From the NCBI GenBank assembly GCA_964357975.1, contig CAYHNG010000002.1:4560-68559 (forward strand): DNA of 64,000 nucleotides. The letters are read 5' to 3'. The stretch comes from an uncultured Pseudomonadales bacterium. Lineage in GTDB: Bacteria; Patescibacteriota; Microgenomatia; UBA1400; MFAQ01. The translations under genes were made by a program, and so were the position numbers. The notes below the pieces were generated by a model, which saw nothing but the letters and a program-made list of their open reading frames with translations, ran no database searches and was not told the DNA's origin. Below are positions 5,177 to 61,495 of the stretch, piece by piece. Within the stretch, counting starts at the first letter, position 1. Every line of letters starts with the position of its first letter.

Positions 5177-5721
5177 CAAAGTTTTTCGGTTATTAAATAT
5201 TCGCGCAACTTATTAAGAGCAAGTCTGCGGTGACTGATCCGGTTCTTTTCTTCGATGCTCATTTCGGCGAAGGTTTCAGTGTAACCATCCGGCTGAAAAA
5301 TAGTATCCCAACCGAAGCCGTTAGCCCCTCTTGGTTCGACAATTTGACCAGGAATTTCACCTTCAAAATACTGAATGTCTCTCGTACTATTTAGATATCC
5401 AACAATCACGACGGCTTTGGCGGAGAAGTTGCCAAACCTCTTGGCAATTTGAAAGAGACCATCGTTGCCAATGGTTTTCATAAACCATCTGATGAGAGGG
5501 CCAGGTAGACCGGGTATGGCATCTAGATAAAGAGAGGCGTCGTCGACAATAAAATTGCCGGATTGGTGTCTTTGGGCTTCCACCAACTTGGCTTCGATGA
5601 TTTTTTTGGGATCGACCTCTTGGATTTCAGGTAAATCTATATTTAACTGTTCTATCTCGGGAACAATGAGTTTGGTTTCTTTAAACTTCCCTTCGTTACC
5701 GGTGATATAAAACAGCTTCAT
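5176..5721 (-). CDS. rdgB: Non-canonical purine NTP pyrophosphatase (RdgB/HAM1)
   Basis: [16 protein letters not shown]-terminus and overall Ham1 pattern. Confidence 0.8.
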
Positions 5722-5723
5722 GA

Positions 5724-6812
5724 TTACTCCAACGCCTTACCCACTTTGATGGTCTCTTCCACCAGTCTATTGGCGTAGCCCCATTCGTTGTCGTACCAAG
5801 CTAAGACTTTGACCATAGTTCCGTCAACTACCCGAGTCATATCCAGATCAACGATGCTGTATTCTGACCGGCCAATAATATCGGAAGAGACAATGGGTTC
5901 GTCTGTCACCGCCAAGATGCCGCGATAGCGTGGTGTTCTGGCGGCGTCGATAAAAATTTGATTTACTTCCTCAACGCTAGTGGCGTGTTGAGTAATAAAA
6001 GTAAAATCGGTGATAGAGCCGGTAAGAACGGGAACACGAAGAGAAATACCGTCAAAAAGCCCCTTTAGCTCCGGAATGGCCTGAGTGGCGGCAATGGCGG
6101 CACCGGTACTGGTGGGAACAATGTTCATGGCCGCGGCGCGGGAGCGGCGAAGATCACGGTGAGAGTTGTCCTGAAGATTTTGATCGTCGGTGTAGCCATG
6201 TACTGTAGTCAACATGGCCTTGAGAATACCAAGTTTTTCGTGAAGAATGTCGGCTACCGGAGCAACACTATTGGTGGTACAAGAAGCATTACTGATAACG
6301 GAAATAACATTGACTCTATCTTTATGAAAGATTTCTTTTTCGTTGACTCCCAAAACAGCAGTCGGGACGCCGGCGCCTTTGGCAGGAGCAGAAAGTACGA
6401 CCATCTTCACGCCACCGCAAATATGAAGAATGGCTTTCTCCAGAGAAGTAAACGCTCCGGTAGACTCGATAACAATTTCGGTGCCATATTTGTCCCAGGG
6501 AATCCGTGAAGGATCTCTTTGGGCCAGAACCGGGATACGCAGTTCTTTCTTGGGATGTTTGATGTTTAGATACCCGAGAAGAGGATTTGCGTCCGAGACT
6601 GCATCCGGTTTCTGAACTTCCTCAGCGGAAATTTCATAGGGGAGTGGACCATAGGAGGTGTCGTATTTAAGGAGATAGGCCCAACCGTGAACTCCCTGTG
6701 ACCCGGAAGTATTGATGGCGACAAGATTGGATTCGTCGAGATGGCTGGCGAGCCAGACACGAGTAGCGGAGCGACCGATACGACCAAAACCGTTGATGGA
6801 AAAATTTATCAT
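5724..6812 (-). CDS. gap: Glyceraldehyde-3-phosphate dehydrogenase
   Basis: INGFGRIGR and SNASCTTN active-site motifs. Confidence 0.9.
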
Positions 6813-9276: not shown

Positions 9277-10926
<1,650 letters not shown>

Positions 10927-10933
10927 TTAATAG

Positions 10934-11242
10934 TTATTTGACTGTGGCGAGAATGTCATCGAATTTGAGAAATTGATATTCGGTATCACCGATCAGAACC
11001 TCGTTACCACCCCATTTTTTGTAGAGGACAGTGTCCCCTGCTTTGGCAGGAGAGCCTATTTCGACACCTCGATCGTTGATTAACTTACCACCGGCGGCGA
11101 GAACTGTGCCGTATTGAGGTTTCTCCTCGTGTGAGTCAGGAAGATAAAGTCCGGAGGCGGTTTTCTTCTCTTGCTTGGCGGGTTCGACCAAGAGAAAGCC
11201 TGGTGCTGGTTGTAATTTTTTGACGGTAAGGGTATTAACCAT
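10934..11242 (-). CDS. groS: Co-chaperonin GroES
   Basis: Typical 10 kDa chaperonin sequence immediately upstream of groEL. Confidence 0.9.
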   Translation of the reverse strand: MVNTLTVKKLQPAPGFLLVEPAKQEKKTASGLYLPDSHEEKPQYGTVLAAGGKLINDRGVEIGSPAKAGDTVLYKKWGGNEVLIGDTEYQFLKFDDILATVK

Positions 11243-11372: not shown

Positions 11373-12410
11373 TTATTTCAAGATGACTATCTTCTCAAGG
11401 ATGAAGTTTATTTCATCAAGAGTCTCAGCATCGACGGCTGTTGGGCTGATGACAGTTAAATAGCCGATCGAAGTCGGGGAAGTGTATTTACCCCCCGAAA
11501 TACTTTCGCAAACATCAAAGATTGAAGATGTATCGTCCGTGACTTTCTTGGCCCACCTCCAGGTGATAATATCTCGCTTAATCAAACTTCGAAAATCAGA
11601 GTAACGAACCGTCATCTCACCCCCGTCTGGGTCAGCCGGAAAAAGACACTCACTGACTTCTCCGGGAGCCTGACGGATGGTCAAAGTTGTGGTGCCTTTT
11701 ATTAGAGTAAGGGTGGAGTTTCCACCATCTTTAGAACTTGGAAAATTTCGATATTCCTTGATAGACCAAATCGTCGGATAATAAAATTGGTAAGAGGTAA
11801 ACAGAGGAAGCGGAGATCTAACCGTCATCATATTCCATCTAAGGTTCAGAAGTGAGGATGGTGTGGCTGTGGGAGCGGGAGGCAGAGTAATTTCGATGAC
11901 AGGTGAAGTCTCAAGTCCAGTTTCAGAAGGATTAACTTCCGGGTTGAGTCCGACATTTTCGGTAAACGGGGCAGAGGGAGACATGGGAAGGAAACGCGAC
12001 GCAAGAACACCAAGCAAGGTACCAAAAAGGATTAGGGCAACACCGGTCAACAAAGTTTTTGTTAGAGAAGGTGAGGATTTTTCAGTAGGTGGAAGGAGGG
12101 GTGGAGTTTCCTGATGACTTGTTTCCGGAGGCGTTATCCACAAGGATGTCGGGCTTGGCGGTGTTGTCGGAACCGAGAGTTGAGGATCCTGGAACGGAAT
12201 TTGAGGGGGTTCGACTCGAGGAGTGCCCACCGGCACTGCTGATTGGTCCCCTCCCCATGACTGAGGTGGAGTGTAACTGACTCCCAATCCGATTGACGGG
12301 TCCGGATCCGAAACTACCGTCCTGGAAGTTTCTGGACTCTCCATCAGGGAATCTTCCGGAGGGATCATTAGTTCTTGATCTTTCTGGTTTTGGTTCTGGT
12401 TCGGATCCAT
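11373..12410 (-). CDS. Pro-rich membrane-anchored hypothetical protein
   Basis: ORF with a central TM helix and Pro/Thr-rich N-terminal half. The 5' end overlaps the upstream gene by 329 nt, so the start is uncertain. Confidence 0.35.
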   Translation of the reverse strand: MDPNQNQNQKDQELMIPPEDSLMESPETSRTVVSDPDPSIGLGVSYTPPQSWGGDQSAVPVGTPRVEPPQIPFQDPQLSVPTTPPSPTSLWITPPETSHQETPPLLPPTEKSSPSLTKTLLTGVALILFGTLLGVLASRFLPMSPSAPFTENVGLNPEVNPSETGLETSPVIEITLPPAPTATPSSLLNLRWNMMTVRSPLPLFTSYQFYYPTIWSIKEYRNFPSSKDGGNSTLTLIKGTTTLTIRQAPGEVSECLFPADPDGGEMTVRYSDFRSLIKRDIITWRWAKKVTDDTSSIFDVCESISGGKYTSPTSIGYLTVISPTAVDAETLDEINFILEKIVILK

Positions 12411-15400
12411 GTTTGGTAGATTGATTGGTAGATAGAAGACCTTTTTCCATGAGCAATCGGAGGAGACTGGTGATCATTCTTAACCGGCCTCCGGAATTGG
12501 TCTCTTTTATTAGTTTATACGCTTCGTCGTAATTTAGCCATTTGACGTCGTCAAACTCTGTGGCGCCGATGGTGATATCGGTAGTGTTGGCTTCTGAAGT
12601 GTAAAAGTAATAATATTTTCCTTTCATCACTACCGGATCTCCCGAATCAGTCACCAAATCTCTTAGTCCTTGTTTTGAAGGAGGAAATTCTATTTTGTCG
12701 ACGGATATCAATTTAATATCCTGACTGCATTTTTTTACAAAATCCTCCGTAACCTCTTCTCCCATTTCCTGAAAGAAGGTTTCCTTGATTGTTTTTTTGT
12801 TGTCCACTCCTCCCTGAGGAAGAGTCCATTGATTAAACGATTTCTGATAAGTCAGAAGAATTTTTTTATCATGCAAGAAACAGCCAACAACACTTGGACG
12901 AAGTCCTTGATTCCTTAGGGCATCAAGATCCCCGAGAGTGGGTTCCTTGAGAGGGGTTGGTGAAACAACTGATGGAGGGAGATTTCTCGACTCCGCTCGA
13001 AATGACGAATCGGTCGGAGATTGCTTCGTTGTTTCACTTCTTCCGCCAGAGGCGGACTGATGCGCAATGACGGGTGTTGATTTTGTGGAAATAGTTTGTC
13101 CGGTGGTTTGAATGGCGGGTGTTGATGGCGGTTTGGAGATAGAGGGAATGACATCCGGAGTAGACACTGTCGATGACGATGGAGGGATTTTGAAAGGGTT
13201 GGGTTTGGATAAGGCCGGAGTGGGAGGAAGTTGGGGGGTGTATGGCGCCTTTGGTGGTGTGGGGGCTGTGGGAGCAGGTGAATTATCAGGGGTTCTAAGT
13301 GCCTTCGGAATATATGGGGGTTCGGTGTATCGTTTGGGAGCCGGGGTCATAATGGCGGTAACTTGAGACATATCCATGGGCTCGATTTTCCGATAGTACT
13401 TCTCATAAGTGGCTTCGAGAACTTTTTCTTTCTGATGAGTGCGAGTATCGGGTAAAGGTAAACCGTAGGATGAAAAAGGTTGTGTCATCTGAGAATCGAC
13501 AGACATTTTCATGGCCAATTGATATTTACCCAACCCAACGAGATCATCTGCGGTGTACAGATTGTTTAACTCTTTCATGATTCGGTCAGCATCTGAAGCT
13601 CCCACCACGTAGCTCATGACCGTACCAACGTTGCCAAAAATGGCGTTTTGAATCTCTTCAGGTAGTTGGGCGATATACTGGTTGGCAAGGACCAGGCCCA
13701 ATTTATATTTTCTGGCCTCAGAAAGTATTTTGACAAAAGAGGAGGTGGCGAAGTTTTGGAACTCATCGACATAGAGAAAAAATTCACGACGTTCCTCCTC
13801 CTTAATGTGGGCGCGATTCATGGCGGCAATTTGAATCTGAGAGATAAACATGGCGCCAAGTAAGGCCGCGTTGTCTTCTCCAATCTTACCTTGCGGAAGA
13901 TTGAGAATAATGATTTTGCCGGCATTCATCATATCCTCAAAATCGACAGTGCTTTTGGGATGGTTGATGATATCTCGGATGGTGGGTGAGGTGACGAATT
14001 GACCAACCTTGTTAAGAATTGGGGCAATTGCTTCCGTTTGGAATTTCTCCGAGTATTTGTCGTATTCATCACGCCAAAAGTTGACAAGTATAGGATCGGT
14101 AACATGAATAAGGCATTCTTTTTCTCGAAAATCTTTATTGGTTAGAATACGAGGGACATCGGCAAGGGTGGTTTCCGGTTTGTAGACTAACGTAAGTAAG
14201 GTGTTTCTGAGGATATACTCAAGACGAGGGCCCCAGGAATTGCCGTAGAGTTTACTAAAGATCGAGACAATACTGGAGGCGACCATTTCGCCTTGTGTCG
14301 GGTTTTTGACATACAGAGGGTTCATCCAAAATGATATCCCAGGTACTGAAGGATCCAGATAAGCAACGTCATTAATACGACTCTCCGGAATGTATTCAAG
14401 AAGAACTTCGGCCGCGTCACCGTGTGGATCAACAAAAGCAACCCCTTCCCCGTGTTGGATGTCATTAATGGCCATGCGACCAATAAGAGTTGACTTTCCT
14501 GTTCCTGACTTCCCCAAAATGTAGGTATGACGGAGGCGGTCGATCCCCTTCTTCATACCGAAGACGGCCAGATGGTTTTTATATTCCGTCTTGGCGAAGA
14601 AATTATAGAGATGCTTTTCACTATCAGGAATTCCCTCATCAACCGGTAAATTGGTGGGCGCTTCACCTTTGAGAGTTTTTCCCCAGGCAATCCCCTTGAT
14701 CGGAGCAAGTAAGACTCCCGGAAGGTGATACATGGCAGCGATCTCACCGTAATTAAGATATTGATACTGATTTGAATATTTCGCGGAGCGATCAAGCATC
14801 ATCTGACGGAGTTTCGTCAGAGAACCGGAGAATTTGTGTTTTTTTAAAGCTAAACTGTTTCCTTCAGACAAGGAATAAGTTCCAAAAGAAGCGGCCAATT
14901 GTGATAATAGCTGTTTTGAGGTGGCTTGATCGGGGGTAATTGCCGCAAGTCGAATATCACAACTAAAAGCTTGGAATAATAATTTTTTTTCGATAATGGA
15001 CTTGTAAGGACTTGGTTTACTTTTGGCCGGATCCGTAGCGGTTGCCGGAGTAACGGTCTCGAGAGAAGACCGAACTGATTTCTGCCAATTTTTGGGGGCA
15101 GCGAACAGACAAATTTGAATAATAGCGGCCTGGCCCGCCGGGACTCTTGCCAAACTGCCCAAGATGGAAGCCATCTGGTCCACCTTATCATCCAAAGTAC
15201 TATTCAGAGAAAGGTTGGATGGTCCGGTGAGAGCCAGCTGGCCAATAGCAGGTTGTCCATAATTCAACCAATCTGGAAGATAATCCTTCATGGGGGTGAT
15301 AAGGGCGGTGGGATACTGGGCGGCTATCTGGGCGCGAACAAGGTGTTCCAGTCGCTCGGGGCAGGCTATGATAAAGAACGTGGTTTGATTAAGGTTGACG

Positions 15401-15561
15401 ATCTCCAAACAAATAGTTTCATGGGTGCCCAACAGACGGTCCATAAAACCGGCCTTGAGTGAAGTTCTCAGAGAGGAAAGAAATTCGATGAAGGCTGCCT
15501 GCCCGGTAAGGGAGTCTTTCGCTGGACGAACCTGCAAAACAGAGTATTTGGGCAAGGCCAT
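12082..15561 (-). CDS. Soluble VirD4/TraD-family (T4CP-like, HerA/FtsK-related) P-loop ATPase with Pro-rich linker and C-terminal degenerate Nudix-like domain
   Basis: Walker A ILGKSGTGKSTLI, VDPHGD, Walker B YVDEFQNF, ARKYKLGLVLANQ C-terminal block. Long P/S/T linker, then WTLPQGGVDNKKTIKETFFQEMGEEV (Nudix-like box with R to Q). No N-terminal TM helices. Confidence 0.55.
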   Translation of the reverse strand: MALPKYSVLQVRPAKDSLTGQAAFIEFLSSLRTSLKAGFMDRLLGTHETICLEIVNLNQTTFFIIACPERLEHLVRAQIAAQYPTALITPMKDYLPDWLNYGQPAIGQLALTGPSNLSLNSTLDDKVDQMASILGSLARVPAGQAAIIQICLFAAPKNWQKSVRSSLETVTPATATDPAKSKPSPYKSIIEKKLLFQAFSCDIRLAAITPDQATSKQLLSQLAASFGTYSLSEGNSLALKKHKFSGSLTKLRQMMLDRSAKYSNQYQYLNYGEIAAMYHLPGVLLAPIKGIAWGKTLKGEAPTNLPVDEGIPDSEKHLYNFFAKTEYKNHLAVFGMKKGIDRLRHTYILGKSGTGKSTLIGRMAINDIQHGEGVAFVDPHGDAAEVLLEYIPESRINDVAYLDPSVPGISFWMNPLYVKNPTQGEMVASSIVSIFSKLYGNSWGPRLEYILRNTLLTLVYKPETTLADVPRILTNKDFREKECLIHVTDPILVNFWRDEYDKYSEKFQTEAIAPILNKVGQFVTSPTIRDIINHPKSTVDFEDMMNAGKIIILNLPQGKIGEDNAALLGAMFISQIQIAAMNRAHIKEEERREFFLYVDEFQNFATSSFVKILSEARKYKLGLVLANQYIAQLPEEIQNAIFGNVGTVMSYVVGASDADRIMKELNNLYTADDLVGLGKYQLAMKMSVDSQMTQPFSSYGLPLPDTRTHQKEKVLEATYEKYYRKIEPMDMSQVTAIMTPAPKRYTEPPYIPKALRTPDNSPAPTAPTPPKAPYTPQLPPTPALSKPNPFKIPPSSSTVSTPDVIPSISKPPSTPAIQTTGQTISTKSTPVIAHQSASGGRSETTKQSPTDSSFRAESRNLPPSVVSPTPLKEPTLGDLDALRNQGLRPSVVGCFLHDKKILLTYQKSFNQWTLPQGGVDNKKTIKETFFQEMGEEVTEDFVKKCSQDIKLISVDKIEFPPSKQGLRDLVTDSGDPVVMKGKYYYFYTSEANTTDITIGATEFDDVKWLNYDEAYKLIKETNSGGRLRMITSLLRLLMEKGLLSTNQSTKHGSEPEPKPERSRTNDPSGRFPDGESRNFQDGSFGSGPVNRIGSQLHSTSVMGRGPISSAGGHSSSRTPSNSVPGSSTLGSDNTAKPDILVDNASGNKSSGNSTPPSTY

Positions 15562-15582: not shown

Positions 15583-16194
15583 CTAGACAGTGGGAGTAGC
15601 AGAAAGAATACTCTGCCCGGAACGTCGAGCGTCAGACTCGATCACTTTGACTTCGGAAAACAGAACATTTTCGATAATCAAGGCACTAGTGTGAAAGAGA
15701 TCGTTTAATTCAGCTTTAAGCTGTGATTCGATTTTAGAGCGCTCGGCTCCGATTTCTTTAGAATCGTGCTTGCTAAAGGCTGAGGCGATCCGGCTCCGAG
15801 AGTATGGCCGGATGACTTTTGAGACAAAATTGTCACCAATATTTTCCCATAGAAGAGGAGCATTGGCTTTGTCCAAACGGAAAAGTATGGAGCCTTCGAT
15901 GGAGATGGTTTTGTTGTCTTTGGTGGTGGCAATGACCGGTTCGTCACCAAGAGCTTCCTTAATCGAAAGATCGAAGCCGTGCCTAATGGTATATTCCAGA
16001 ACCTGAGCGTTGAAGAGTTTAGCAATTTGCCAAAAGGGAATTTTGAGATGAAGACCAGGTCCCCAGACACGTTTAAGGACACCCGCTCCCCGATCGTAAA
16101 CACAAGCTACATGTCCGGGTGGAACGGAGATAAAGAAGCCACCAACGACTTCATCGACAAGAAAAGATACTACTAATTTATCAAAATCAGCCAT
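15583..16194 (-). CDS. SPFH/band-7 domain protein (stomatin/prohibitin-like)
   Basis: Domain-like pattern only; no catalytic motifs. Confidence 0.4.
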   Translation of the reverse strand: MADFDKLVVSFLVDEVVGGFFISVPPGHVACVYDRGAGVLKRVWGPGLHLKIPFWQIAKLFNAQVLEYTIRHGFDLSIKEALGDEPVIATTKDNKTISIEGSILFRLDKANAPLLWENIGDNFVSKVIRPYSRSRIASAFSKHDSKEIGAERSKIESQLKAELNDLFHTSALIIENVLFSEVKVIESDARRSGQSILSATPTV

Positions 16195-16217: not shown

Positions 16218-17021
16218 TTACGCTGTCGGAGGAGTGCTTGTGGGGGGAGGAGTGCCCGGAGAGGTGGTGGTGGCTGCCGTTGAAGGCTGACTTGCGACGT
16301 CTTGGTGCCTGAAGGAGTAAGTAAGGTACAAAATCTGTCTGATGATTTTGAGGGCAATACCAAAGGCTAGAGAGGTGATAATAAAGACCTTTTTGCCGGC
16401 CGGAAGAAACATGAAAATCAGAAAGCTAACCACCGGAAGGATAATCACCAAAGAGATGAAATCCTTACGAGAAGGCTTGACAGGCTCAAAATAGAGGTGG
16501 ACTATTTCGCTTAGACAAATCATAAGAGACTGAAGCAGGTTTAGAGCGCTGTTGGTATGGGAAAGATCGTATTTCCCGAGAAACATTAAATTGATGGGTT
16601 GATGAACGGAAGGCATAAACTTATATAGCAAGTGCATGTCGGCTCCCTCGAGGCCGGTAGTAAAGATGCGATAAAGAATCAAAATGATTAACACCTGAAT
16701 GGTAATAGTAAAAATTTCAGAAAAAATAGCACCAGGACTTTGGCGCATTAGCTTCCTGATTTCTTCTTTCTGCTTGACAGGATCATAAGCCAGATCTTTT
16801 TTTACCTGCTTAACCATGAGCGAGATCTGAAGTTTTTCTTCGTCGGACTGTTCACCAACGAAATCGATGGGAAGAAGAATGAGGCGGACGGCTACCGCAA
16901 AAAGAATAACTGCAATGCCCATATCCGGGGCGGTAAAGACTTGCCCGACCAGCCAATAGAGGCCAACCAAAATATTGAAGAAAGGCTGATAAATGTAGAG
17001 AGTAAAGAAATCCATATTCAA
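16218..17021 (-). CDS. Polytopic membrane protein with Pro/Thr-rich tail (hypothetical)
   Basis: Multiple hydrophobic helices and a TPGTPPPTSTPP tail. Confidence 0.4.
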   Translation of the reverse strand: MNMDFFTLYIYQPFFNILVGLYWLVGQVFTAPDMGIAVILFAVAVRLILLPIDFVGEQSDEEKLQISLMVKQVKKDLAYDPVKQKEEIRKLMRQSPGAIFSEIFTITIQVLIILILYRIFTTGLEGADMHLLYKFMPSVHQPINLMFLGKYDLSHTNSALNLLQSLMICLSEIVHLYFEPVKPSRKDFISLVIILPVVSFLIFMFLPAGKKVFIITSLAFGIALKIIRQILYLTYSFRHQDVASQPSTAATTTSPGTPPPTSTPPTA

Positions 17022-17036
17022 AGGTAATTATATGTC

Positions 17037-17879
17037 CTAAGAAGTTTTTAGGTGGTGGCTGATTGCTCCGGCGAAGTCGGTGGTGTGCAGAAAAGCAGCG
17101 TGAAGATGAACAGTTTCACCGGTTTTTTTAGGAGACATATACAGGAGCTGTATGAGGTAAAAAAGATAATTTAGAGGGGCGAGGACATAAAATATGAGCA
17201 TGGAGTGAGATTTCTCCACTCGTTTCACTCGGTCGAAATGACGAGGACCTTTTTGTAATATCAGGGAAGTGTAGGCGTTGGCTAGATACTTTTTGGTCCA
17301 CCGATTTTCATAAAGAAAAGTCCGATAAGTGTCCCCCCTGTCCAAAAGAGGTACCACCTGGAGTACTTCGTGAGCCGTATATAAATTTCGTTTGTCTATG
17401 GGAACCGAAAGAGACAAGGAATCGAGCCAGAGATTGGGGCAGAAGGCATCAACCGCCGTCGAGTGGTCCTCCCCCGGATGACGCCGACGAAAAAATAGGG
17501 ACATGAGAATGATTACAACCGGGCGGACAAGCCAAAGACAATATGGAGAGGTCACAAAAAGGAGATCTATATCATCATGGGGGTGAGAGTTGCCGGCGGC
17601 CACCGATCCGGTAAGGGCAACCAGCCGAAGGCCGGGAAGAAATCTAAGAGTTTTGACCAGTTTCCGGGCATGTAAGGTTTTCAATTTTGAGGAGTGCGAA
17701 ACGGCCGAACGAAGCCTTTTCTGTGATGAAGTCATGGACGGAGGAAGTAGGCCTTTGATGGACCTAAATGGGACCGACATGGTGGTAACTAGCCAATAAT
17801 GAATCTCCTCAGGCGACAAGGGAAAATGAAAATAATCGGCGTATCTGATGGTTTTCGAAACGGCTCGACGAAGATCCAT
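17037..17879 (-). CDS. Nucleotidyltransferase-domain protein (pol-beta-like) carrying an in-frame family-A repeat
   Basis: LTGSVAAGNSHPHDDIDLLFV motif. The segment PRHFDRVKRVEKSHS is encoded by repeat copy A2. Confidence 0.4.
   Translation of the reverse strand: MDLRRAVSKTIRYADYFHFPLSPEEIHYWLVTTMSVPFRSIKGLLPPSMTSSQKRLRSAVSHSSKLKTLHARKLVKTLRFLPGLRLVALTGSVAAGNSHPHDDIDLLFVTSPYCLWLVRPVVIILMSLFFRRRHPGEDHSTAVDAFCPNLWLDSLSLSVPIDKRNLYTAHEVLQVVPLLDRGDTYRTFLYENRWTKKYLANAYTSLILQKGPRHFDRVKRVEKSHSMLIFYVLAPLNYLFYLIQLLYMSPKKTGETVHLHAAFLHTTDFAGAISHHLKTS
17201..17244. repeat. Family-A repeat, copy A2 (in frame inside the 17037-17879 CDS)
   Basis: GGAGTGAGATTTCTCCACTCGTTTCACTCGGTCGAAATGACGAG. Confidence 0.7.
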
Positions 17880-19455: not shown

Positions 19456-21183
19456 ATGGAAAAATTTAAATACCTCTTGGGTTCGTTGATGATGGTTATA
19501 TTGTTGACCATGACGATATATGTTGGCTTCAGGTTGGCCTTTAGAAAATTGATATTCCCCAAAGTAGATATCGCAGGAGTGGAAATGACTGGCTTAGATA
19601 AAGCTACCGCTTTAAAACTGATGACCTCCTATTTTGAAACAAATCCCAGTGAGGTATTGTTGGAAGCCGATGGAAAAGTTGTCTCAAAACTGACAGGGAT
19701 TAAAGTGGAGTACGATCTGGTGTGGGCGGTCGATCAAGCAATGGGGGTAGGCAGAAACGGAAATATTCTGACTCAAATTACCGAAACAGTAAAGGTGTTG
19801 CTTTATGGTAGAACTATTACCCTACCCGTCAGCTATAACAAGGATGATATCTTAGGCTTGGCAGATCAGATGTCGGAAAAGTTAAATCAGAAACCGGTAT
19901 GGCCAAAACTAGTGGGCGATAACAAAAAATTTAAGTTGGTACCCGGAAAAAATGGAGTGGAGGTAAAAACAAACGATCTGATCGGTGATATTATCAAACA
20001 GTTTGGTTTACCCGGTAGACACGTAATTCAGGTGCCCACCAATTTGGTTGAGACCAAAGAGAACAAGGAGTTAGTCCGACTGGCCACAGGAAGCTTAGAA
20101 AAGTGGGGTGACAGTATATTAACTCTTCGTTTTAGAGAGTTTGAAAAACAAGTGGGTAGTGAGGAGATGGCTGCCTTGTTTGGATTGATTAATGACCGGA
20201 TTGATGCCAATAGATTTGAATTACTGGTAAATGAAATCAAGCCTCTGGTTGAAACTGCGCCGAGAGATGCAATTTTTGTCTTTGAAAACAATAAGGTTAA
20301 TGAGTTCAAACCCGAAATTATCGGAGCCACGATCGATATTCCACAGTTCCAATCCAAACTGGCTGAAGCTCTTGTTTCCCCGGAAGAAAAAACCTTCGAA
20401 ATTCCGATGATTCTGACCTACCCAAAGGTAAAAACCGGTGATATCAACAACCTAGGAATCAAAGAACTGATCGGGTCAGGAAAATCTACCTTTTTTCATT
20501 CAATTCCCGGTAGAGTCTTTAATGTAAACTTGGCTGCTTCAAGGGTAAGTGGAACGTTGGTAGCACCCGGAGATGAGTTTTCCTTTGTAAATGCGGTAGG
20601 AGATATTTCCAAAGCCACCGGATATCAAACCGCTTATATAATAAGTGCAGGAAGAACTGTTTTGGGCGATGGTGGTGGTGTTTGCCAAGTATCAACAACC
20701 ACTTTTCGAGCCGCACTGGACGCAGGGTTGCCGATTACGGAAAGAAAAGCCCATGCTTATCGCGTCGGATATTACGAACAAGATAGCCCTCCCGGTATTG
20801 ATGCGACGGTCTATTATCCCACGGCCGATCTAAAGTTCTTAAACGATACAGGTAGCTATATTTTGATTCAAGAAACGGTAGACACCAAAAAATTATCCAT
20901 GCAGGTAGATATCTATGGCACGAGTGATGGGAGAAAATCAATCATTTCCAAACCGAGAATTTCAAACCAGACTCCTCCTCCACCCACAATGTATGTGGAT
21001 GACCCTACCCTACCTCTGGGAACCATGAAGCAGATTGACTGGTCGGCATGGGGGGCAAGGGTGGCTTTCGACTACAAGGTCGAACGAAACGGTGAAAGTA
21101 TTTATGAAAAAACCTTTGTAAGCAATTACCAACCTTGGCAGGCGATATATTTGAAGGGCACCGGAGATTTGGCAGTGAGGTAA
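19456..21183 (+). CDS. VanW-family protein
   Basis: N-terminal TM helix and the VanW core GDGGGVCQVSTTTFRAALDAGLPITERKAHAY. Confidence 0.7.
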   Translation: MEKFKYLLGSLMMVILLTMTIYVGFRLAFRKLIFPKVDIAGVEMTGLDKATALKLMTSYFETNPSEVLLEADGKVVSKLTGIKVEYDLVWAVDQAMGVGRNGNILTQITETVKVLLYGRTITLPVSYNKDDILGLADQMSEKLNQKPVWPKLVGDNKKFKLVPGKNGVEVKTNDLIGDIIKQFGLPGRHVIQVPTNLVETKENKELVRLATGSLEKWGDSILTLRFREFEKQVGSEEMAALFGLINDRIDANRFELLVNEIKPLVETAPRDAIFVFENNKVNEFKPEIIGATIDIPQFQSKLAEALVSPEEKTFEIPMILTYPKVKTGDINNLGIKELIGSGKSTFFHSIPGRVFNVNLAASRVSGTLVAPGDEFSFVNAVGDISKATGYQTAYIISAGRTVLGDGGGVCQVSTTTFRAALDAGLPITERKAHAYRVGYYEQDSPPGIDATVYYPTADLKFLNDTGSYILIQETVDTKKLSMQVDIYGTSDGRKSIISKPRISNQTPPPPTMYVDDPTLPLGTMKQIDWSAWGARVAFDYKVERNGESIYEKTFVSNYQPWQAIYLKGTGDLAVR

Positions 21184-21186
21184 CTA

Positions 21187-21220
21187 CAGATCTCGGATGT
21201 CAGATATCAGTTCTCAGATT
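21187..21220. repeat. Family-B CAGATNT heptamer tract, copy B1 (intergenic, upstream of tsaD)
   Basis: CAGATCTCGGATGTCAGATATCAGTTCTCAGATT. Confidence 0.6.
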
Positions 21221-21231
21221 AGAATATAAGG

Positions 21232-22296
21232 ATGAAGATATTAGCGATTGAGAGCACGTGTGATGAAACGGCGGCGGCTGTAGTGGAGAACTTTGGCGAG
21301 GGAGTCAAGGTGATAAAAAGTGTGGTGGCAAGCTCGGTGGAGATGCACGAAAAATATGGTGGAATTGTCCCTGAAGTAGCCGCAAGGGAACAAATTAAAA
21401 GTATGATTCCGGTAATTATGGAAGCAATCGGCGATGATAAGGTCGAGGCGGTAGCCGTAAGTTATGGACCGGGCCTAATGGGAAGTTTGCTCGTGGGAGT
21501 GGAAACCGCCAAGGTTCTGGCGTGGGCATGGAAAAAACCATTACTTAAAGTAAATCACATGGCGGCCCACGTGCTGGCAAATTGGATCACTAAGGAAGGA
21601 TCTCAGATGTCAGATGTCAGATCTCAGATTCCGGAGATGCCGGCCGTTGGTTTGGTAGTTAGTGGAGGGCACACTGATCTGATACTAATGGAGAGTTTGA
21701 GTAAGTGGACTTGGATTGGAGGGACACGTGACGATGCGGTAGGAGAGGCTTTTGATAAAGTAGCGAGAATCTTAGGACTTCCCTATCCCGGTGGACCGGA
21801 AGTGGACAAAGCGGCAAGTAAGGTAACAGAGAAAGAATGGGAAACAAACAAAAATGAATTTAAATTACCTAGACCCTTGATCCATGATCCTGGATTAGAA
21901 ATGAGTTTCTCGGGAATTAAAGCGGCAGTGGCGAGAGTGGTAGAAACAAGATCTCAGATGTCAGATCTCAGATTTCAGATGTCGGATGAGACTTTTAGGA
22001 ATCTGGTGGCGAGAGAATTTAGTGAAGCGGTAACAGAGGTTCTGGTGAAGAAAACCATGATGGCAGTTGAACAATTTTTACCAAGAAGTGTTGTTCTGGC
22101 TGGTGGAGTGGCGGCAAACAAAAAACTCAGAGAAAGGTTGAGAGCTGAAGTAGAGAAGACAGAAGAAACAAAGTTTTTTGTACCTGAACTTAAATATTGC
22201 GGAGACAACGCCGCAATGGTTGGTGCAGTAGCTATACTACGCCGTGAAGAAGCGGAGTTAGACCTAAAACCGGAGCCAAGTCTGGCGACGGTCTAA
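21232..22296 (+). CDS. tsaD: tRNA N6-adenosine threonylcarbamoyltransferase TsaD, with two in-frame heptamer-repeat insertions
   Basis: MKILAIESTCDETAAAVV N-terminus and VSGGHT. Inserted peptides SQMSDVRSQIPE and RSQMSDLRFQMSDE are encoded by copies B2 and B3. Confidence 0.85.
   Translation: MKILAIESTCDETAAAVVENFGEGVKVIKSVVASSVEMHEKYGGIVPEVAAREQIKSMIPVIMEAIGDDKVEAVAVSYGPGLMGSLLVGVETAKVLAWAWKKPLLKVNHMAAHVLANWITKEGSQMSDVRSQIPEMPAVGLVVSGGHTDLILMESLSKWTWIGGTRDDAVGEAFDKVARILGLPYPGGPEVDKAASKVTEKEWETNKNEFKLPRPLIHDPGLEMSFSGIKAAVARVVETRSQMSDLRFQMSDETFRNLVAREFSEAVTEVLVKKTMMAVEQFLPRSVVLAGGVAANKKLRERLRAEVEKTEETKFFVPELKYCGDNAAMVGAVAILRREEAELDLKPEPSLATV
21601..21634. repeat. Family-B heptamer tract, copy B2 (inside tsaD, in frame)
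   Basis: TCTCAGATGTCAGATGTCAGATCTCAGATTCCGG. Confidence 0.6.
21949..21988. repeat. Family-B heptamer tract, copy B3 (inside tsaD, in frame)
   Basis: AGATCTCAGATGTCAGATCTCAGATTTCAGATGTCGGATG. Confidence 0.6.
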
Positions 22297-22312
22297 TCGA
22301 AATAAATAAAAA

Positions 22313-22332
22313 AACCCGCCGGCAAAAGCGGG
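22313..22332 (-). terminator. Intrinsic terminator for the small minus-strand gene (weakly bidirectional for tsaD)
   Basis: ACCCGCCGGCAAAAGCGGGT, flanked by an A-run on the plus strand (a T-run on the minus strand). Confidence 0.5.
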
Positions 22333-22351
22333 TAATAAAGAGACAATTTTT

Positions 22352-22558
22352 CTATAGAGCAAGGAGCGCCAGACCTATGACAGCGAGTATGCCTGCTACG
22401 CCGTATGGCTTGTTCCCCTCGAAGAAGACTTCTTTCTCAGGTCCTCGATAAACACTCTCCCTGATCGAACTTCTTGGTCTCGGTCTGTAAAAAAGTTTCA
22501 CCAGAACAAGAAGTACAGCAAATACTATAAAAACGATCCCAAGAATATTTAGGAACAT
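22352..22558 (-). CDS. Small two-TM membrane protein (68 aa), paralog of 23333-23590
   Basis: Consensus promoter and GAGGAG SD upstream, terminator downstream. Confidence 0.5.
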   Translation of the reverse strand: MFLNILGIVFIVFAVLLVLVKLFYRPRPRSSIRESVYRGPEKEVFFEGNKPYGVAGILAVIGLALLAL

Positions 22559-22601
22559 CTCTCTCTCCTCTCGGTCTGTTAAAGAATGTTAGTTATGGGA
22601 T

Positions 22602-22630
22602 ATTATAGTATCCCTTAGGGTCCCCGTCAA
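22602..22630 (-). promoter_or_regulatory. Consensus sigma70-type promoter TTGACG-17-TATAAT
   Basis: Minus-strand sequence cTTGACGgggaccctaagggatacTATAATatccc. Duplicated at 23622-23650. Confidence 0.6.
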
Positions 22631-22668
22631 GGGATGAGTTTCAAGCCTGAGCCAAGTCTGGTGACAGT

Positions 22669-23283
22669 TTAGGGGTTTTTAATAAAGCAACAAATAAAGG
22701 GGTGGTCTTTTTCTTCATGTAGGGTAATATCCAACAAATTAAAACCTGCCTCGACCAGACATTTGGCCATTTCCTCAACCGAATAATATGAATAAAAACG
22801 ACCTTTATTGTCGACTTCAGTACCAACACCTTCTTTGAGGGTTATAAGACCGATGCCACCCTGACGAAGTTGATCTCTTAACACCGCGAGAGAAGAAACG
22901 ATTTCGGCCTTATCCAGATGAAGAAGCGAGGCAATGGCCAGAAGACCATCAAATTTTGGTGAAAGACCGGGAACTCGAAGATCCTGACAGGCAAAATTTC
23001 CCTCCGGATAGCGGGACTTGGCAATCGACAGCATCCCCAAAGAAATATCGGTCCCTACGTAGCCATAGCCCATTTCTCTCAAAAGTAAGGCCTCATTGCC
23101 GATACCACAACCAACTTCCAAAACAGTTCCATCGGGCAATAGTTTTTGAAAGAGGGCTAATTCCTTTGACCAGTAGTGACTGACCCCCTCTCCCCTAAAA
23201 GAATTAAACTCTCGAGCGTGGTGATCATAATATGCAAGGGTGTTCTTTTCATGTTCATTTTTGTCCATGTCGGAGCATACCAT
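22669..23283 (-). CDS. Class I SAM-dependent methyltransferase
   Basis: VLEVGCGIGNEALLL motif I and DGLLAIASLLH motif. Confidence 0.75.
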   Translation of the reverse strand: MVCSDMDKNEHEKNTLAYYDHHAREFNSFRGEGVSHYWSKELALFQKLLPDGTVLEVGCGIGNEALLLREMGYGYVGTDISLGMLSIAKSRYPEGNFACQDLRVPGLSPKFDGLLAIASLLHLDKAEIVSSLAVLRDQLRQGGIGLITLKEGVGTEVDNKGRFYSYYSVEEMAKCLVEAGFNLLDITLHEEKDHPFICCFIKNP

Positions 23284-23673: not shown

Positions 23674-25830
23674 ATGAGGGTGATGGAAAAGAATTACGAT
23701 CACAAAGAATACGAAGAGAAGATATATCGCGAGTGGGAGGCTAGTGGAGCCTTTACTCCCCCTACTGGAGCTGGGGTAGCAAAAACCGGACAGAAGACTT
23801 TAACGATCATTATGCCACCTCCAAACGCCAATGATCCGTTACATGTGGGACATGCGATGTTTGTGACGATCGAGGATATTCTGGTTAGATTCCACAGAAT
23901 GCGAGGTGAAGCGACTCTGTGGCTTCCGGGTACTGATCATGCCGGAATCGAAACGCAGTTTGTCTTTGAAAAGAAATTAGCTAAACAGAAAAAGAGTCGA
24001 TTTGATTTTGATAGGGACACTCTATATCAAATGATCTGGGATTATGTACAAGAAAACTCCGGAGTAGCGATCGAACAAATGAAAAAATTGGGAGCAAGTG
24101 CCGATTGGAGCAGATATAAGTTCACCCTCGACCAGGAGGTGGTCACAGAGGTTATCAAAACCTTTGTAAAGCTACACGAAGACGGATTGGTCTACAGAGG
24201 TGTCAAACTAGTCAATTACTGCACCCGATGTGGGACCGCCTATTCGGAACTGGAAGTGGATCATGAGGATCGAGAGGACAAGCTCTACAAAATAAATTAC
24301 GGAAAAATTATGGTGGCGACTACCAGACCGGAAACCATGCTCGGAGATGTGGCAGTGGCCGTTAATCCGGATGACCCCAGATACAAGAAGCTGATTGGCG
24401 AGAAGGTTGCCTTGCCACTCGTAGGGAGAGAAATACCCATTGTCGGGGACTCAATGGTGGACATGGAGTTTGGAACCGGTGCCGTAAAGATTACTCCGAC
24501 TCACGATCAAAATGATTGGGAGGTAGCGGTAAGGCAAGGGTGGAATATGGAAGAGATTGTCAGAGACTATCAGGTAATCGGAAATAACGGCAAGATGACC
24601 CAGAATGCCGGGAAATATGAGGGGTTGAACACAGTAGAGGCGAGAGAGAAGGTAGTGACTGATTTGGGAGAAGCTTTAATAGAAACGAAACCTTATCTTC
24701 ACAGCGTGGGTACTTGTTATCGATGCCATCGAATAATTGAGCCTTTGCCGATGAAACAATTCTTTATCAAGGTTAAAACTCTTGCAGATAAAGCTCTGAA
24801 AGCTCTCGATCAAGGAGAGACGGAGATTATGGGATCCGGTCATGACAAAATCTTACGTCACTGGCTAAGCAACTTACGAGATTGGAATATCAGCCGGCAG
24901 ATTGTTTGGGGAATAAGAATACCGGTGTGGTATCCACCAAAAGAACTCAAGGAATCAAGAACTCAAGGAATCAAGACAGAAAATGAGGAGTATGTGGTGA
25001 GTGAGAAGAGCCCGGGTGAAGGGTGGATTCAGGAAACAGATACGTTTGATACCTGGTTTTCTTCCGGCCAATGGCCAGTGGTGACACTAAAAACCGGTAA
25101 ACCGGGAGACTTTGAGGCATATTATCCAACGAGCGTAATGGAAACAGCCTATGACATTCTCCCCTTTTGGGTGATGAGGATGATGATGCTCGGCATATAT
25201 ATGACAGGAAAATCTCCCTTTAGAACGGTGTATTTACACGGATTGGTGCGAGATGAAAAGGGAGAAAAGATGAGCAAAAGTAAAGGCAACGTGATCAATC
25301 CTTTGGACTTGACCGAAAAATATGGAGCGGATTCTCTGAGGATGGCCCTGGTCATGAGCACGACGCCAGGACAAGATAGCAACACGGGAGAGAACAAAGT
25401 ACGGGGTATGAGAAATTTCGGGAATAAGATTTGGAATGCGGGAAGATATGTGTTGGAACTTGGATCAATAATGTCAGATGGAGTGAGATTGCCACGTCAC
25501 TCCGTTCCTCGCAATGACGGCGTTGGAGGAGAGAAAGATGATGACTTTGAAAAGAAGATGGAGGTAATAAAAAAGGAATTAACCAGATTGTTGGAGGATA
25601 ACCGTGTCGGACTGGCGGCGGAGTATATTTACAATGAATTTTGGCACTGGTTTTGTGATGAGCAGATTGAAGAAAATAAACAAGGAAGGATTAGTGACGA
25701 GGTCCTCAAAGCTGGATTTGAATCATTTTTGAAAATGCTTCACCCGTTCGTCCCCTTTGTGACGGAAGCGGTGTGGAAAGAGGCGTTTCCGGAGGAAGGA
25801 TTGATTATTAGTCAGAAGTGGCCGATTTAA
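23674..25830 (+). CDS. valS: Valine--tRNA ligase (short form lacking C-terminal coiled coil), with an in-frame family-A repeat
   Basis: PPPNANDPLHVGHA (HIGH) and KMSKSKGN. The peptide GVRLPRHSVPRNDG is encoded by repeat copy A3. Confidence 0.9.
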   Translation: MRVMEKNYDHKEYEEKIYREWEASGAFTPPTGAGVAKTGQKTLTIIMPPPNANDPLHVGHAMFVTIEDILVRFHRMRGEATLWLPGTDHAGIETQFVFEKKLAKQKKSRFDFDRDTLYQMIWDYVQENSGVAIEQMKKLGASADWSRYKFTLDQEVVTEVIKTFVKLHEDGLVYRGVKLVNYCTRCGTAYSELEVDHEDREDKLYKINYGKIMVATTRPETMLGDVAVAVNPDDPRYKKLIGEKVALPLVGREIPIVGDSMVDMEFGTGAVKITPTHDQNDWEVAVRQGWNMEEIVRDYQVIGNNGKMTQNAGKYEGLNTVEAREKVVTDLGEALIETKPYLHSVGTCYRCHRIIEPLPMKQFFIKVKTLADKALKALDQGETEIMGSGHDKILRHWLSNLRDWNISRQIVWGIRIPVWYPPKELKESRTQGIKTENEEYVVSEKSPGEGWIQETDTFDTWFSSGQWPVVTLKTGKPGDFEAYYPTSVMETAYDILPFWVMRMMMLGIYMTGKSPFRTVYLHGLVRDEKGEKMSKSKGNVINPLDLTEKYGADSLRMALVMSTTPGQDSNTGENKVRGMRNFGNKIWNAGRYVLELGSIMSDGVRLPRHSVPRNDGVGGEKDDDFEKKMEVIKKELTRLLEDNRVGLAAEYIYNEFWHWFCDEQIEENKQGRISDEVLKAGFESFLKMLHPFVPFVTEAVWKEAFPEEGLIISQKWPI
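25490..25520. repeat. Family-A repeat, copy A3 (in frame inside valS)
   Basis: GGAGTGAGATTGCCACGTCACTCCGTTCCTCGCAATGACGG, with a 7 bp GGAGTGA/TCACTCC stem. Confidence 0.7.
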
Positions 25831-57027: not shown

Positions 57028-57086
57028 GGTGGAGTTTTTGTATGAGATTGCTTCAGCTCGAATACGAGATTCGCAATGACGAAGTG
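57028..57086. repeat. Family-A-like repeat, copy A10, with adjacent weak terminator hairpin (3' of pilin gene 2)
   Basis: CCGCCTGACGGTGGAGTTTTTG then GAGATTGCTTCAGCTCGAATACGAGATTCGCAATGACGAAGTG. Confidence 0.5.
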
Positions 57087-58949: not shown

Positions 58950-59273
58950 TTAAAAGAATTTAAAGCCAATAATTGCCCCCATAACTCGGGTGATTAGGAA
59001 AGCGAGAACAATGAGGATCAGACCAAGTATTCCATAGTTTAGCATGTTCTGAGCTTGTTCGGTTTTGCCTTTGTCACCACTTGCAGTGATATAGTTGAAA
59101 CCAGCCAGGATAATGACGATAAAGGCCATGACGCCGGAAATTATTAGCACATTGGAGATTAGAGGGTTAATAAGGTTGGCCAATGTGGCCCCACTACCGC
59201 CGACATTCAAGGCTTTGCCTGGAGCATAGAGATTTTCCAACGATTCTGCCGCAAGGACAGTTTTGATAACCAT
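58950..59273 (-). CDS. VirB2/TrbC-like pilin paralog 7
   Basis: Leader MVIKTVLAA|E, loop ITASGDKGKTEQ. Confidence 0.55.
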   Translation of the reverse strand: MVIKTVLAAESLENLYAPGKALNVGGSGATLANLINPLISNVLIISGVMAFIVIILAGFNYITASGDKGKTEQAQNMLNYGILGLILIVLAFLITRVMGAIIGFKFF

Positions 59274-60784: not shown

Positions 60785-61495
60785 TTATTTCGACTTTGGG
60801 GTGGAATCCCCGCCGAAGCGGCGATCTCTTTGGGTGAAGTCGTCAATAGCTTTCATGAATTGGTCGGGAGTGAAATCGGGGAATAAGGTAGGAGTGAAGT
60901 AAAGTTCCGAGTAGACACTTTGCCAGGGTAGGTAACCCGAGGTACGGCGTTCTCCACCGGTACGGATAACTAGGTCGGGGTCGGGCATACCGGCGGTGTC
61001 CAGGTAAGATGAAAAAATTTCTTCATTTATATTGTTTGCGGGAATCTGGTCGTTGATGATTTTTTTGATTGCACGAATGATTTCGTCCCGACCACCATAA
61101 TTAAGAGCAAAGGAGACAGTAATTTTATTGTTTTTGGAGGACTTAGAGATCATTTCCATTGATTTTTTGGCAATATCTTCAGGGAAACGGCTCATGTCAC
61201 CTAATATTTGTAGCTTTGCTCCTCGCTTAATAAATCTGAGAGCAAGGGCTCCAAAGGCAATTCGAAATATATCTAAAATCCCCCTGACTTCTTTTTCGTC
61301 TCTTTTCCAATTTTCGGTAGAGAAGGCCCAAAAGGTCACATAGGGGATACCCAGATCGACACATTTTTCGATCAGAGGTTCAATGGTGTGGTTGGCGGCG
61401 TATTCGTGACCTTTGACAGGTTCCAAACCTTGTTTTTTTGCCCAACGACGGTTGCCATCCATCATGATCGCAATATGTTTTAGTGGAAGTTCCAT
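60785..61495 (-). CDS. uppS: Undecaprenyl diphosphate synthase (cis-prenyltransferase)
   Basis: MMDGNRRWA and YVTFWAFSTENWKR motifs. Confidence 0.85.
   Translation of the reverse strand: MELPLKHIAIMMDGNRRWAKKQGLEPVKGHEYAANHTIEPLIEKCVDLGIPYVTFWAFSTENWKRDEKEVRGILDIFRIAFGALALRFIKRGAKLQILGDMSRFPEDIAKKSMEMISKSSKNNKITVSFALNYGGRDEIIRAIKKIINDQIPANNINEEIFSSYLDTAGMPDPDLVIRTGGERRTSGYLPWQSVYSELYFTPTLFPDFTPDQFMKAIDDFTQRDRRFGGDSTPKSK

Follow-up and report, generated by a model that had tools for sequence, protein, structure and literature searches.

In the 64 kb stretch of contig CAYHNG010000002.1 analyzed here (the window), the tsaD gene, which encodes the tRNA t6A37 threonylcarbamoyltransferase subunit, carries three tandem arrays of a 7-nt unit, TCAGATN on the + strand. 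One array (UP) lies just upstream of the gene, and the other two (S1 and S2) are read in frame as extra loops of the protein. In related genomes, the same three slots are shared by several unrelated repeat families, and no length change at S1 or S2 is seen within the 90% sequence clusters that we compared. We lean, with slightly better than even confidence, to the explanation that these are dispersed, stop-free simple sequence repeat (SSR) arrays, tolerated in permissive loops and in a promoter spacer and renewed by frame-preserving slippage or conversion, with no switching role. Thus, an essential, universally conserved enzyme of a reduced-genome bacterium of the Candidate Phyla Radiation (CPR) has two microsatellites in its coding sequence and a third in its probable promoter region.

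Results

The initial annotation of this DNA, which wrote the unit as CAGATNT, had described the tracts as heptamer tandem repeats, and direct reading of the sequence agrees (Table 1). A two-unit pattern, CAGATNTCAGATNT, was searched with at most one mismatch on both strands of the window and in 100 shuffles. It matches 10 times in the 64 kb, every time within UP, S1 or S2 and on the + strand, while the shuffles give 0.37 ± 0.61 matches and none of the 100 reaches 10. The tracts are thus head-to-tail 7-nt units in at least three copies, above chance, as is expected of heptanucleotide SSR arrays. The further search for such arrays that had been proposed found matches only in these three tracts, so that all TCAGATN arrays of the window are at tsaD. 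Tandem Repeats Finder gives S1 a period of 7, 4.4 copies and 91% matches, and S2 a period of 7, 5.7 copies and 84% matches; the more degenerate UP array is below its threshold and is not reported. The UP array, which had been placed just upstream of tsaD and is found there, is located in a 48-nt spacer between the stop codon of a VanW-like open reading frame (ORF; TAA, 21181–21183) and the tsaD ATG (21232), and it ends 11 nt before the ATG. UP and S1 have a common order of N variants (C,G,A/G,C,T), and S1 and S2 begin with the same 17 nt, GATCTCAGATGTCAGAT. An assembly artefact was considered as the source of the tracts and rejected, as an independent European Nucleotide Archive (ENA) assembly, L127, with a 100% identical TsaD protein, has base-identical S1 and S2 DNA, and orthologous arrays are present in many assemblies.

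The ORF at 21232–22296 is a bona fide TsaD. It scores 351.7 bits against the TIGR03723 equivalog model (cut-off 296.1), matches Thermotoga maritima TsaD with E = 8e-63, and aligns from end to end with TsaD proteins of solved structure. The AlphaFold2 (AF2) model has a predicted local distance difference test (pLDDT) score of 84 and, by Foldseek, template modeling (TM) scores of 0.82–0.88 to E. coli YgjD. The ASKHA fold, the metal-binding HxxxH and the SGGHT motif expected of a TsaD are all present, and the catalytic HxxxH (H109, H113) and SGGHT (S144–T148) are invariant among 40 orthologs.

Compared with the T. maritima enzyme, the window TsaD has 10 additional residues at the S1 site and 11 at the S2 site; compared with insert-free Collierbacteria-like orthologs, it has 6–10 and 8 additional residues, respectively. 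Both the reading frame and the ortholog alignment therefore bear out the earlier claim that two of the tracts are in-frame insertions in an otherwise conserved TsaD. In the AF2 model, the S1 loop lies between helix 109–118 and strand 138–144, and the block 121–130 has a pLDDT of 60, against 88–91 in the flanks. The S2 loop lies between helices 227–238 and 252–282, and the block 241–250 has a pLDDT of 63, against 90–92 in the flanks. These two inserts are the sole internal low-confidence segments of the model, and they are predicted to sit in flexible, permissive loops of TsaD. Like Rickettsia palindromic elements (RPEs) and MITEs (miniature transposable elements with inverted repeats), they are in-frame insertions at structurally permissive sites of a conserved protein.

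What fills these sites in relatives? The comparison set was an alignment of 40 TsaD orthologs and a neighbor-joining tree of 120 sequences with the insert columns masked. The nearest homologs are 77–80% identical to the window TsaD, and their sources name them Candidatus Collierbacteria (Microgenomates, CPR); the gene order near tsaD is kept in the relatives' loci examined. In this set, TsaD is hypervariable at the two insert positions and nowhere else. A large clade at about 64–67% identity is insert-free, with baseline loops of about 7–11 and about 15 residues, and it is precisely the S1 and S2 loops whose fillings form a patchy mosaic in the window's clade and in one more distant clade. At the DNA level, the fillings in relatives are of four kinds: TCAGATN heptamer arrays; octamer arrays of TCAAGRAM, AACTCAAG and AACTCAAA; the GTTATTAG repeat; and hairpin-type repeat elements. 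Among the last, TTCCCGATCARGTCGGGAATGACA is a single DNA element that gives the peptide WIPDQVGND in one frame and FPIRSGMTS in another, and RLPRFARNDE is a related type of hairpin element filling a TsaD slot. Some relatives hold nothing at S1, S2 and/or the upstream spacer.

The upstream spacer holds a heptamer array in the window, L001 (with three units kept), L154, L156 and L201, an octamer array in L005, GTTATTAG in L003, and nothing repetitive in several others. Orthologous UP arrays in the same register are found in L201 and L154. For S1, L154 and L155 are in the same register and L156 is shifted; for S2, arrays of the same length and register are found in L005, L147, L154, L001, L003 and L201. 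The architecture of three arrays at UP, S1 and S2 recurs in relatives down to 61% TsaD identity (L154, L156). The initial annotation had held that homologous segments without the periodicity in close relatives would speak against heptamer insertions. Such decay is seen at S2 of L001 and L003, while the periodicity is kept in L005, L154 and L201.

Some further observations on the TsaD alleles were made. The sequence P0112 (RSQIPEL) was considered as a contracted heptamer allele and set aside, its DNA, TCTCAAATACCA, being too decayed to decide. The hairpin element CCGATCARGTCGGGAATGAC, which fills TsaD slots in relatives, has no copy in the window with three or fewer mismatches. Within 90% clusters, TsaD alleles are mosaics (the P0005 cluster; P0008 vs P0146; P0017 and P0020 vs P0015), with substitutions linked in blocks over the C-terminal third and with S2 fillings exchanged between sequences that are otherwise nearly identical, which suggests recombination between Collierbacteria lineages. 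Several contigs with the most perfect heptamer allele of tsaD (L005/L006, L133) end at most about 100 nt downstream of the gene; this may be an assembly break at a repeat.

The conservation of the arrays was compared with that of the rest of tsaD by aligning orthologous arrays in register between genomes. Between these genomes, tsaD has reached saturation at four-fold degenerate sites, with identities of 0.28–0.47, and third codon positions in the rest of the gene have identities of 0.38–0.57. The TCAGAT core sites have identities of 0.74 in S2 and 0.91 in S1, and the N sites of 0.34 and 0.60, respectively. By codon position (1/2/3), core identity is 0.77/0.76/0.69 in S2 and 0.88/0.93/0.93 in S1. 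Thus, the usual coding signature, a third position far less conserved than the first and second, is absent from the array core. The noncoding UP array together with the adjacent GAATATA is 77–86% identical between the window and L201/L154, against just 35–40% for four-fold sites between the same genomes. On this sequence evidence, two readings fit a core conserved irrespective of codon position: recurrent homogenization (concerted evolution) or selection on a DNA or RNA function.

Three comparisons bear on homogenization. At the same site, different perfect octamers are found, (AACTCAAG)4 in L140 and L147 and (AACTCAAA)4 in L141. In slot S1, L199 and L201 differ by exactly 24 nt (GAATCAAGGAACCAAGAACTCAAG, three octamer units) with identical flanks; this indel preserves the frame and is the sole DNA-verified length change between species. 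We take the octamer swaps and this indel, as read from the sequences, to be direct evidence for homogenization and for frame-preserving steps. In addition, private variants recur within single genomes: L156 has GTAGATC at UP, at S2 and at position 20417, and L003 has GTTATTAG at both UP and S2. Together with the N order and the 17-nt start noted above for the window, this hints at exchange between arrays.

Are the arrays unstable in length? The initial annotation had proposed slip-strand phase variation or modulation of tsaD, and this is not supported. Typical contingency loci are long, perfect, length-polymorphic tracts in surface or restriction-modification genes. The window arrays are short and imperfect, with 4–6 units and the match percentages given above, and the tract DNA is identical in L127. 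The S2 array is most perfect in the relative L005/P0005, for which ten distinct full-length alleles are known from many samples; all are 368 amino acids long, and the S2 insert, NRYQISDVRSQISDN, is invariant among them, although they differ at up to 18 other positions. Among about 25 distinct full-length sequences in six 90% clusters, no length change was found at S1 or S2; the length differences within these clusters are alternative start codons and one unrelated indel of one amino acid. Neither these sequences nor the L127 assembly thus show the tract-length polymorphism of a contingency locus. The sole in-tract polymorphism seen is a synonymous C/A difference at an N position (L134/L136 vs L005). 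From these comparisons, the arrays look stable, and do not look like an on/off switch of tsaD.

The coding potential of the unit depends on its orientation. Enumeration of all 4096 N combinations of a six-unit TCAGATN array in six frames gave no stop codon in any forward frame and stops in all three reverse frames; octamer arrays have the same stop pattern by orientation. Because 7 and 3 are coprime, the peptide period of TCAGATN, the 7-residue S-D-x-R-x-Q-x, is the same in all three forward frames. The stop-free orientation means that an array of the right length can survive in genes where extra residues are tolerated.

A scan across phyla, with one genome per species, found TCAGATN arrays of at least four units in at least 120 contigs from many phyla. 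Among the matches listed, there are 116 arrays of other phyla, of which 33 are part of a long open frame with TCAGAT on the coding strand, and none with its reverse complement there; also among these listed matches, 36 of the 116 lie at most 25 nt upstream of a start codon (of an ORF of at least 80 amino acids) in the ATCTGA orientation, opposite to that of the window UP array. Orientation-dependent coding potential, as in cyanobacterial short tandemly repeated repetitive sequences (STRRs) and TAACTGA repeats, is therefore evident both from the enumeration and from the 33 vs 0 count among the matches listed. We do not take the occurrence across phyla as evidence that TCAGATN is a special heptamer, since in viral contigs there are 23 TCAGATN arrays vs 12 and 10 for two composition-matched control heptamers, only about twofold, and 3 of the 12 matches of the control TGACATN are the same arrays on the other strand. 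In other phyla, higher-order repeats of (TCAGATG)n were also observed, in L008 (Pyrinomonadaceae) at 5580–5881 and in L010, L057, L080, L105 and L106, with three arrays at a period of about 62–69 nt and a conserved spacer, GTGAGTTTCGGGCG. After some (TCAGATG)n arrays of other phyla comes the reverse complement of the array itself, which makes a long hairpin.

The upstream array adjoins a probable promoter. The −10-like TAGAAT at 21220–21225 ends 6 nt before the tsaD ATG, relatives carry GTAAAAT at this place, and TAnAAT stands 8–17 nt upstream of the start codon in about a dozen other window genes (examples in Table 1). In the sigma-70 scan, the number of matches in the UP region is not above that of shuffles; one weak match overlaps the UP array and is used here only jointly with the positional −10 pattern. 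The genes preceded by TAnAAT have no room for Shine–Dalgarno spacing, which suggests that many mRNAs of this organism have no leader or a very short one. For tsaD, the −10-like hexamer, its counterpart in relatives and the pattern before other genes together point to a putative promoter that probably gives a leaderless or short-leader transcript, with the UP array as spacer and −35 region. If the −35-like hexamer is drawn from the periodic array, a change in the number of units would leave the −35/−10 spacing unaltered. As RNA, UP folds less stably than 198 of 200 shuffles, and the predicted structure of UP, S1 and S2 does not exceed that of shuffles (z = +1.95, 0.0 and +0.9, respectively). 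An Rfam scan of 20500–23000 at E ≤ 1 found no match.

Related repeats occur in other genes of the window and of its relatives. The valyl-tRNA synthetase ORF (ValRS, 820 bits) contains a perfect AAGAACTCAAGGAATC array, which is absent from the L001 ortholog (a 13-amino-acid gap) and whose family fills slot S1 or the UP slot of tsaD in relatives. The three sets of hairpin-type inserts in Table 1 are absent from the L001, L003 and L005 orthologs. In relatives, heptamer or octamer arrays are found in FolD, ribosomal protein S2 (RpsB), ValRS and a DUF8128-NUDIX protein, in one hypothetical ORF, and within or next to rnpA. The array in the hypothetical ORF is in the reverse orientation and has TGG where TGA would fall. 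As to dispersal, then, the heptamer arrays of the window are all at tsaD, and the relatives' 20-kb loci add FolD, ValRS, the hypothetical ORF and rnpA. Three Patescibacteria are among the matches listed in the scan across phyla, all with in-frame arrays: L009 (Shapirobacteria), with three arrays in a putative LeuRS, and L018 and L025, with arrays in putative MiaB-like and DusB-like ORFs, the names being read from the translations. All three are thus in tRNA-handling enzymes, like TsaD and ValRS, which may be chance, given three cases and ascertainment bias. From the arrays in other genes and the shared fillings, it follows that repeats are not confined to TsaD, which does, however, have three slots where they recur.

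Additional motifs of the GCAATGAC/GTCATT type are seen in the window at about 52785, 57044–57072, 9262, 35637, 45791, 34326 and 45586. A (GTTATTA)×3.9 array at 10912–10938, which reads (TAATAAC)n on the gene strand, is located about 9 nt before the ATG of a 541-amino-acid ORF (9277–10902), in the spacer between this and a 102-amino-acid ORF (10934–11242). The latter is homologous to the Cpn10 gene of relatives; the longer ORF is probably groEL. In L003, UP and S2 at tsaD are occupied by the GTTATTA unit as well.

Table 1. Repeat arrays, host genes and associated features in the window.
Feature	Position	Strand	Description
tsaD	21232–22296	+	354 amino acids, tRNA t6A37 threonylcarbamoyltransferase subunit; by TIGR03723, homology and fold
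UP array	21187–21220	+	five degenerate TCAGATN units: CAGATCT CGGATGT CAGATAT CAGTTCT CAGATTA
S1 array	21599–21634	+	about 5 TCAGATN units, GATCTCAGATGTCAGATGTCAGATCTCAGATTCC; in frame, codes for G123–E135 (GSQMSDVRSQIPE)
S2 array	21949–21988	+	about 5.7 TCAGATN units, AGATCTCAGATGTCAGATCTCAGATTTCAGATGTCGGATG; in frame, codes for R240–D252 (RSQMSDLRFQMSD)
Weak sigma-70-like promoter match	21197–21225	+	ATGTCA, 17 nt, TAGAAT; 9/12 matches
Gene starts preceded by TAnAAT (examples)	15583–16194, 16218–17021, 32838, 37760, 58950–59273, 59303, 60785–61495, 61522–61860		
Octamer/16-mer array	24941–24976	+	(AAGAACTCAAGGAATC)×2.2, perfect; in frame in ValRS 23674–25830 (...PPKELKESRTQGIKTE...)
Hairpin-type insert	25483–25530	+	30 nt, GATTGCCACG...CGCAATGAC; in frame in ValRS
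Hairpin-type inserts	12978–13071	−	GTCATTTCGAGCGGAGTCGAGAAATCTC; in frame in DUF8128-NUDIX ORF
Hairpin-type insert	17205–17240	−	GAAGCAATCTC; in frame in ORF 17037–17879
Two-unit octamer-family match, weaker	59549–59572	+	TTAAGGAAGCAAGAACTCAAGACA; inside ORF 59303–60415
Two-unit octamer-family match, weaker	12903–12918	−	CTAAGGAATCAAGGAC; inside ORF 12082–15561

Discussion

We suggest that the arrays at tsaD are members of a dispersed family of hepta- and octanucleotide tandem repeats in Collierbacteria-like and other Patescibacteria genomes. Their stop-free orientation would let arrays of the right length persist in genes, and TsaD would offer two flexible loops and a short spacer. Renewal would occur by slippage in blocks of three units (21 or 24 nt), so that the frame is kept, with gene conversion between arrays as a possible second route. 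Such renewal would keep the TCAGAT core recognizable while N positions and synonymous sites drift to saturation, and the content of a slot could be replaced by another repeat family. The arrays would then be translated as loop extensions without a specific role, stable on population time scales.

Several points weigh against this explanation. The conservation of the core irrespective of codon position would be explained just as well if purifying selection acted on a function of the DNA or RNA. Three-unit slippage is documented by one DNA-verified case only, the L199/L201 indel. In a k-mer permutation test, arrays within a genome were only marginally more alike than orthologous arrays (p = 0.05–0.14). 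The N variants of the window differ from unit to unit (C,G,G,C,T and C,G,C,T,G,G), so very recent unit-by-unit homogenization would not give such arrays. Finally, three heptamer arrays at one gene and their recurrence down to 61% identity look more specific than random colonization.

It is possible, though in our judgment rather unlikely, that the arrays are functional cis-elements in DNA or RNA, that is, reiterated sites at which a sequence-specific factor would bind and control tsaD along with other housekeeping genes. This factor could be a regulator, a nucleoid protein, or an RNA binder of the S1/Csp/CsrA type, as proposed for TAACTGA repeats, and in-frame copies would be tolerated because of their low cost. 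The equal conservation of the core at the three codon positions beside saturated N sites would be expected of such sites, as would the identity of the noncoding UP array, far above that of four-fold sites, and the recurrence of the UP/S1/S2 architecture in L154 and L156. Furthermore, UP is unusually unstructured as RNA and adjoins the start codon and promoter, and the start-proximal position of 36 of the 116 other-phylum arrays, among the matches listed, matches the TAACTGA report (PMC4679880). However, many close relatives are without an array at one, two or all of the slots, or have an unrelated repeat there, and UP is oriented opposite to the start-proximal arrays elsewhere. A candidate binding factor was not identified, promoter function alone can explain the conservation of UP, and TCAGATN exceeds the composition-matched controls in viral contigs only about twofold.

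A broader version, in which an active sequence-specific process or a selected regulatory code seeds and maintains stop-free arrays at fixed slots of Patescibacteria housekeeping genes and promoters, we consider unlikely. If it were true, its targets would notably be the tRNA-handling enzymes TsaD, ValRS, LeuRS, MiaB-like and DusB-like, and the core conservation would reflect a DNA or RNA function, for example, sites embedded in coding sequence that co-regulate the translation apparatus.

Decidedly unlikely, in our view, is that a small mobile unit left the arrays as its footprints or copies. This could be a transposon that prefers its own target and goes through cycles of insertion and excision, duplicating 7 bp (or 8 bp) of the target, or a copy-paste element of about 35 nt with a defined 5′ end (A|GATCTCAGAT). 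The common N order of UP and S1 and the identical 17-nt start of S1 and S2 would fit copying, and nearly all of the relatives' arrays start with [AG]GATCTCAGA. The private variants across slots of one genome (L156, L003) and the presence of the same repeat families at many unrelated loci point in the same direction. Against this, neither target-site duplications nor terminal inverted repeats were seen at the arrays, nor was a transposase associated with them, the within-genome similarity test is marginal, and the common 5′ ends may merely reflect the orthology of the slots.

The inserted peptides (S-Q-M-S-D-V/L-R heptads) could themselves be adaptive loop extensions for a lineage-specific interaction with TsaB, TsaE or tRNA. 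The inserts are kept in frame and at constant length in several species, and translated arrays occur in other tRNA-handling enzymes of Patescibacteria, the ValRS, LeuRS, MiaB-like and DusB-like proteins. We nevertheless find this very improbable, since the coding signature is absent, with core third positions as conserved as first and second, the peptides in the same loop are wholly different or missing between close relatives, and the loops have low pLDDT. Hardly credible is a phase-variable contingency locus, with tsaD turned off and on, or tuned from the upstream tract, as single 7-nt units are gained or lost by slippage. In its favor, 7 is not divisible by 3, three arrays stand at one gene, and heptanucleotide promoter repeats are reported to modulate Haemophilus hmw expression (PMC8262952). 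However, independent assemblies and about 25 full-length alleles have no length variants at S1 or S2, the 4–6 units are imperfect, tsaD is a housekeeping enzyme gene present as a single copy in the window, and a −35-like element inside the array would make the promoter spacing insensitive to unit changes.

The explanation by tolerated SSR arrays, which we favor, has a bearing on how repeats shape the proteins of streamlined genomes, as, throughout the lineage, several unrelated repeat families concentrate at the three tsaD slots. It also calls for caution by annotators and in structure prediction, where loop inserts of this kind should be read as repeat DNA and not as lineage-specific domains. 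Heptameric SSRs are over-represented in bacteria and poorly understood (Rehm 2015, PMC4692102). The tsaD arrays offer a clean test case of whether they are neutral slippage products or DNA/RNA-level signals, with a useful contrast between a core conserved irrespective of codon position and saturated N positions.

Comparison with known systems

Of the families described so far, the TAACTGA repeat (TCAGTTA on the other strand) comes closest; it is a heptamer direct repeat of Beggiatoaceae, Cyanobacteria and Bacteroidetes for which a post-transcriptional regulatory role has been proposed (MacGregor 2015, PMC4679880). There, as here, 7-nt units stand in tandem, usually in 2–6 copies, and the TAACTGA arrays are dispersed at many loci (PMC4679880). 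In both, one orientation has stops in every frame while the other can be translated, giving LSVISYQ there and SDxRxQx here; some copies are internal to ORFs in the translatable orientation, many adjoin start codons, and no RNA structure is predicted. The unit is one position off TCAGATN, and the variants TCAGTTC and TCAGTTA occur within the arrays studied here. By contrast, the TAACTGA repeats are mostly intergenic, start-proximal and in the stop-containing orientation, with the copies in ORFs at protein termini, whereas two of the three window arrays are intragenic and occupy internal loops of an essential enzyme, and the one upstream has the translatable orientation. Here, moreover, the arrays are in a CPR bacterium, at slots that also hold octamer and hairpin-type repeats.

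The cyanobacterial STRRs and the GGGAATC/GGGGAYT repeats of Xanthomonas and Nostoc (PMC4692102) are likewise heptanucleotide arrays that vary in length and sequence between related species at conserved positions, and an origin by polymerase slippage has been proposed for them (PMC4692102). Those arrays are G-rich, quadruplex-capable and intergenic, whereas the arrays at tsaD are not G-rich and are partly coding. Contingency loci, such as the tetranucleotide tracts of H. influenzae and the heptanucleotide tracts of hmw (PMC2651432, PMC8262952), resemble the present arrays in having units that are not a multiple of 3 within an ORF and in a promoter-proximal region; the tracts here differ in being short, imperfect, length-invariant and in an essential enzyme.

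RPEs and MITEs (PMC10969869; for Coxiella MITEs, PMC5896051) are in-frame selfish repeats in unrelated housekeeping genes, at insertion sites compatible with fold and function, and they are translated as extra peptide segments, as are S1 and S2. The RPEs are palindromic elements of about 100–150 bp, in contrast to direct 7- and 8-mer tandems of 34–40 nt here, which fold no better than shuffles and have neither a palindrome nor terminal inverted repeats. The present case thus combines TAACTGA-like tandem arrays with RPE-like in-frame colonization, in the internal loops of an enzyme, at slots used by several repeat families and in a CPR lineage.

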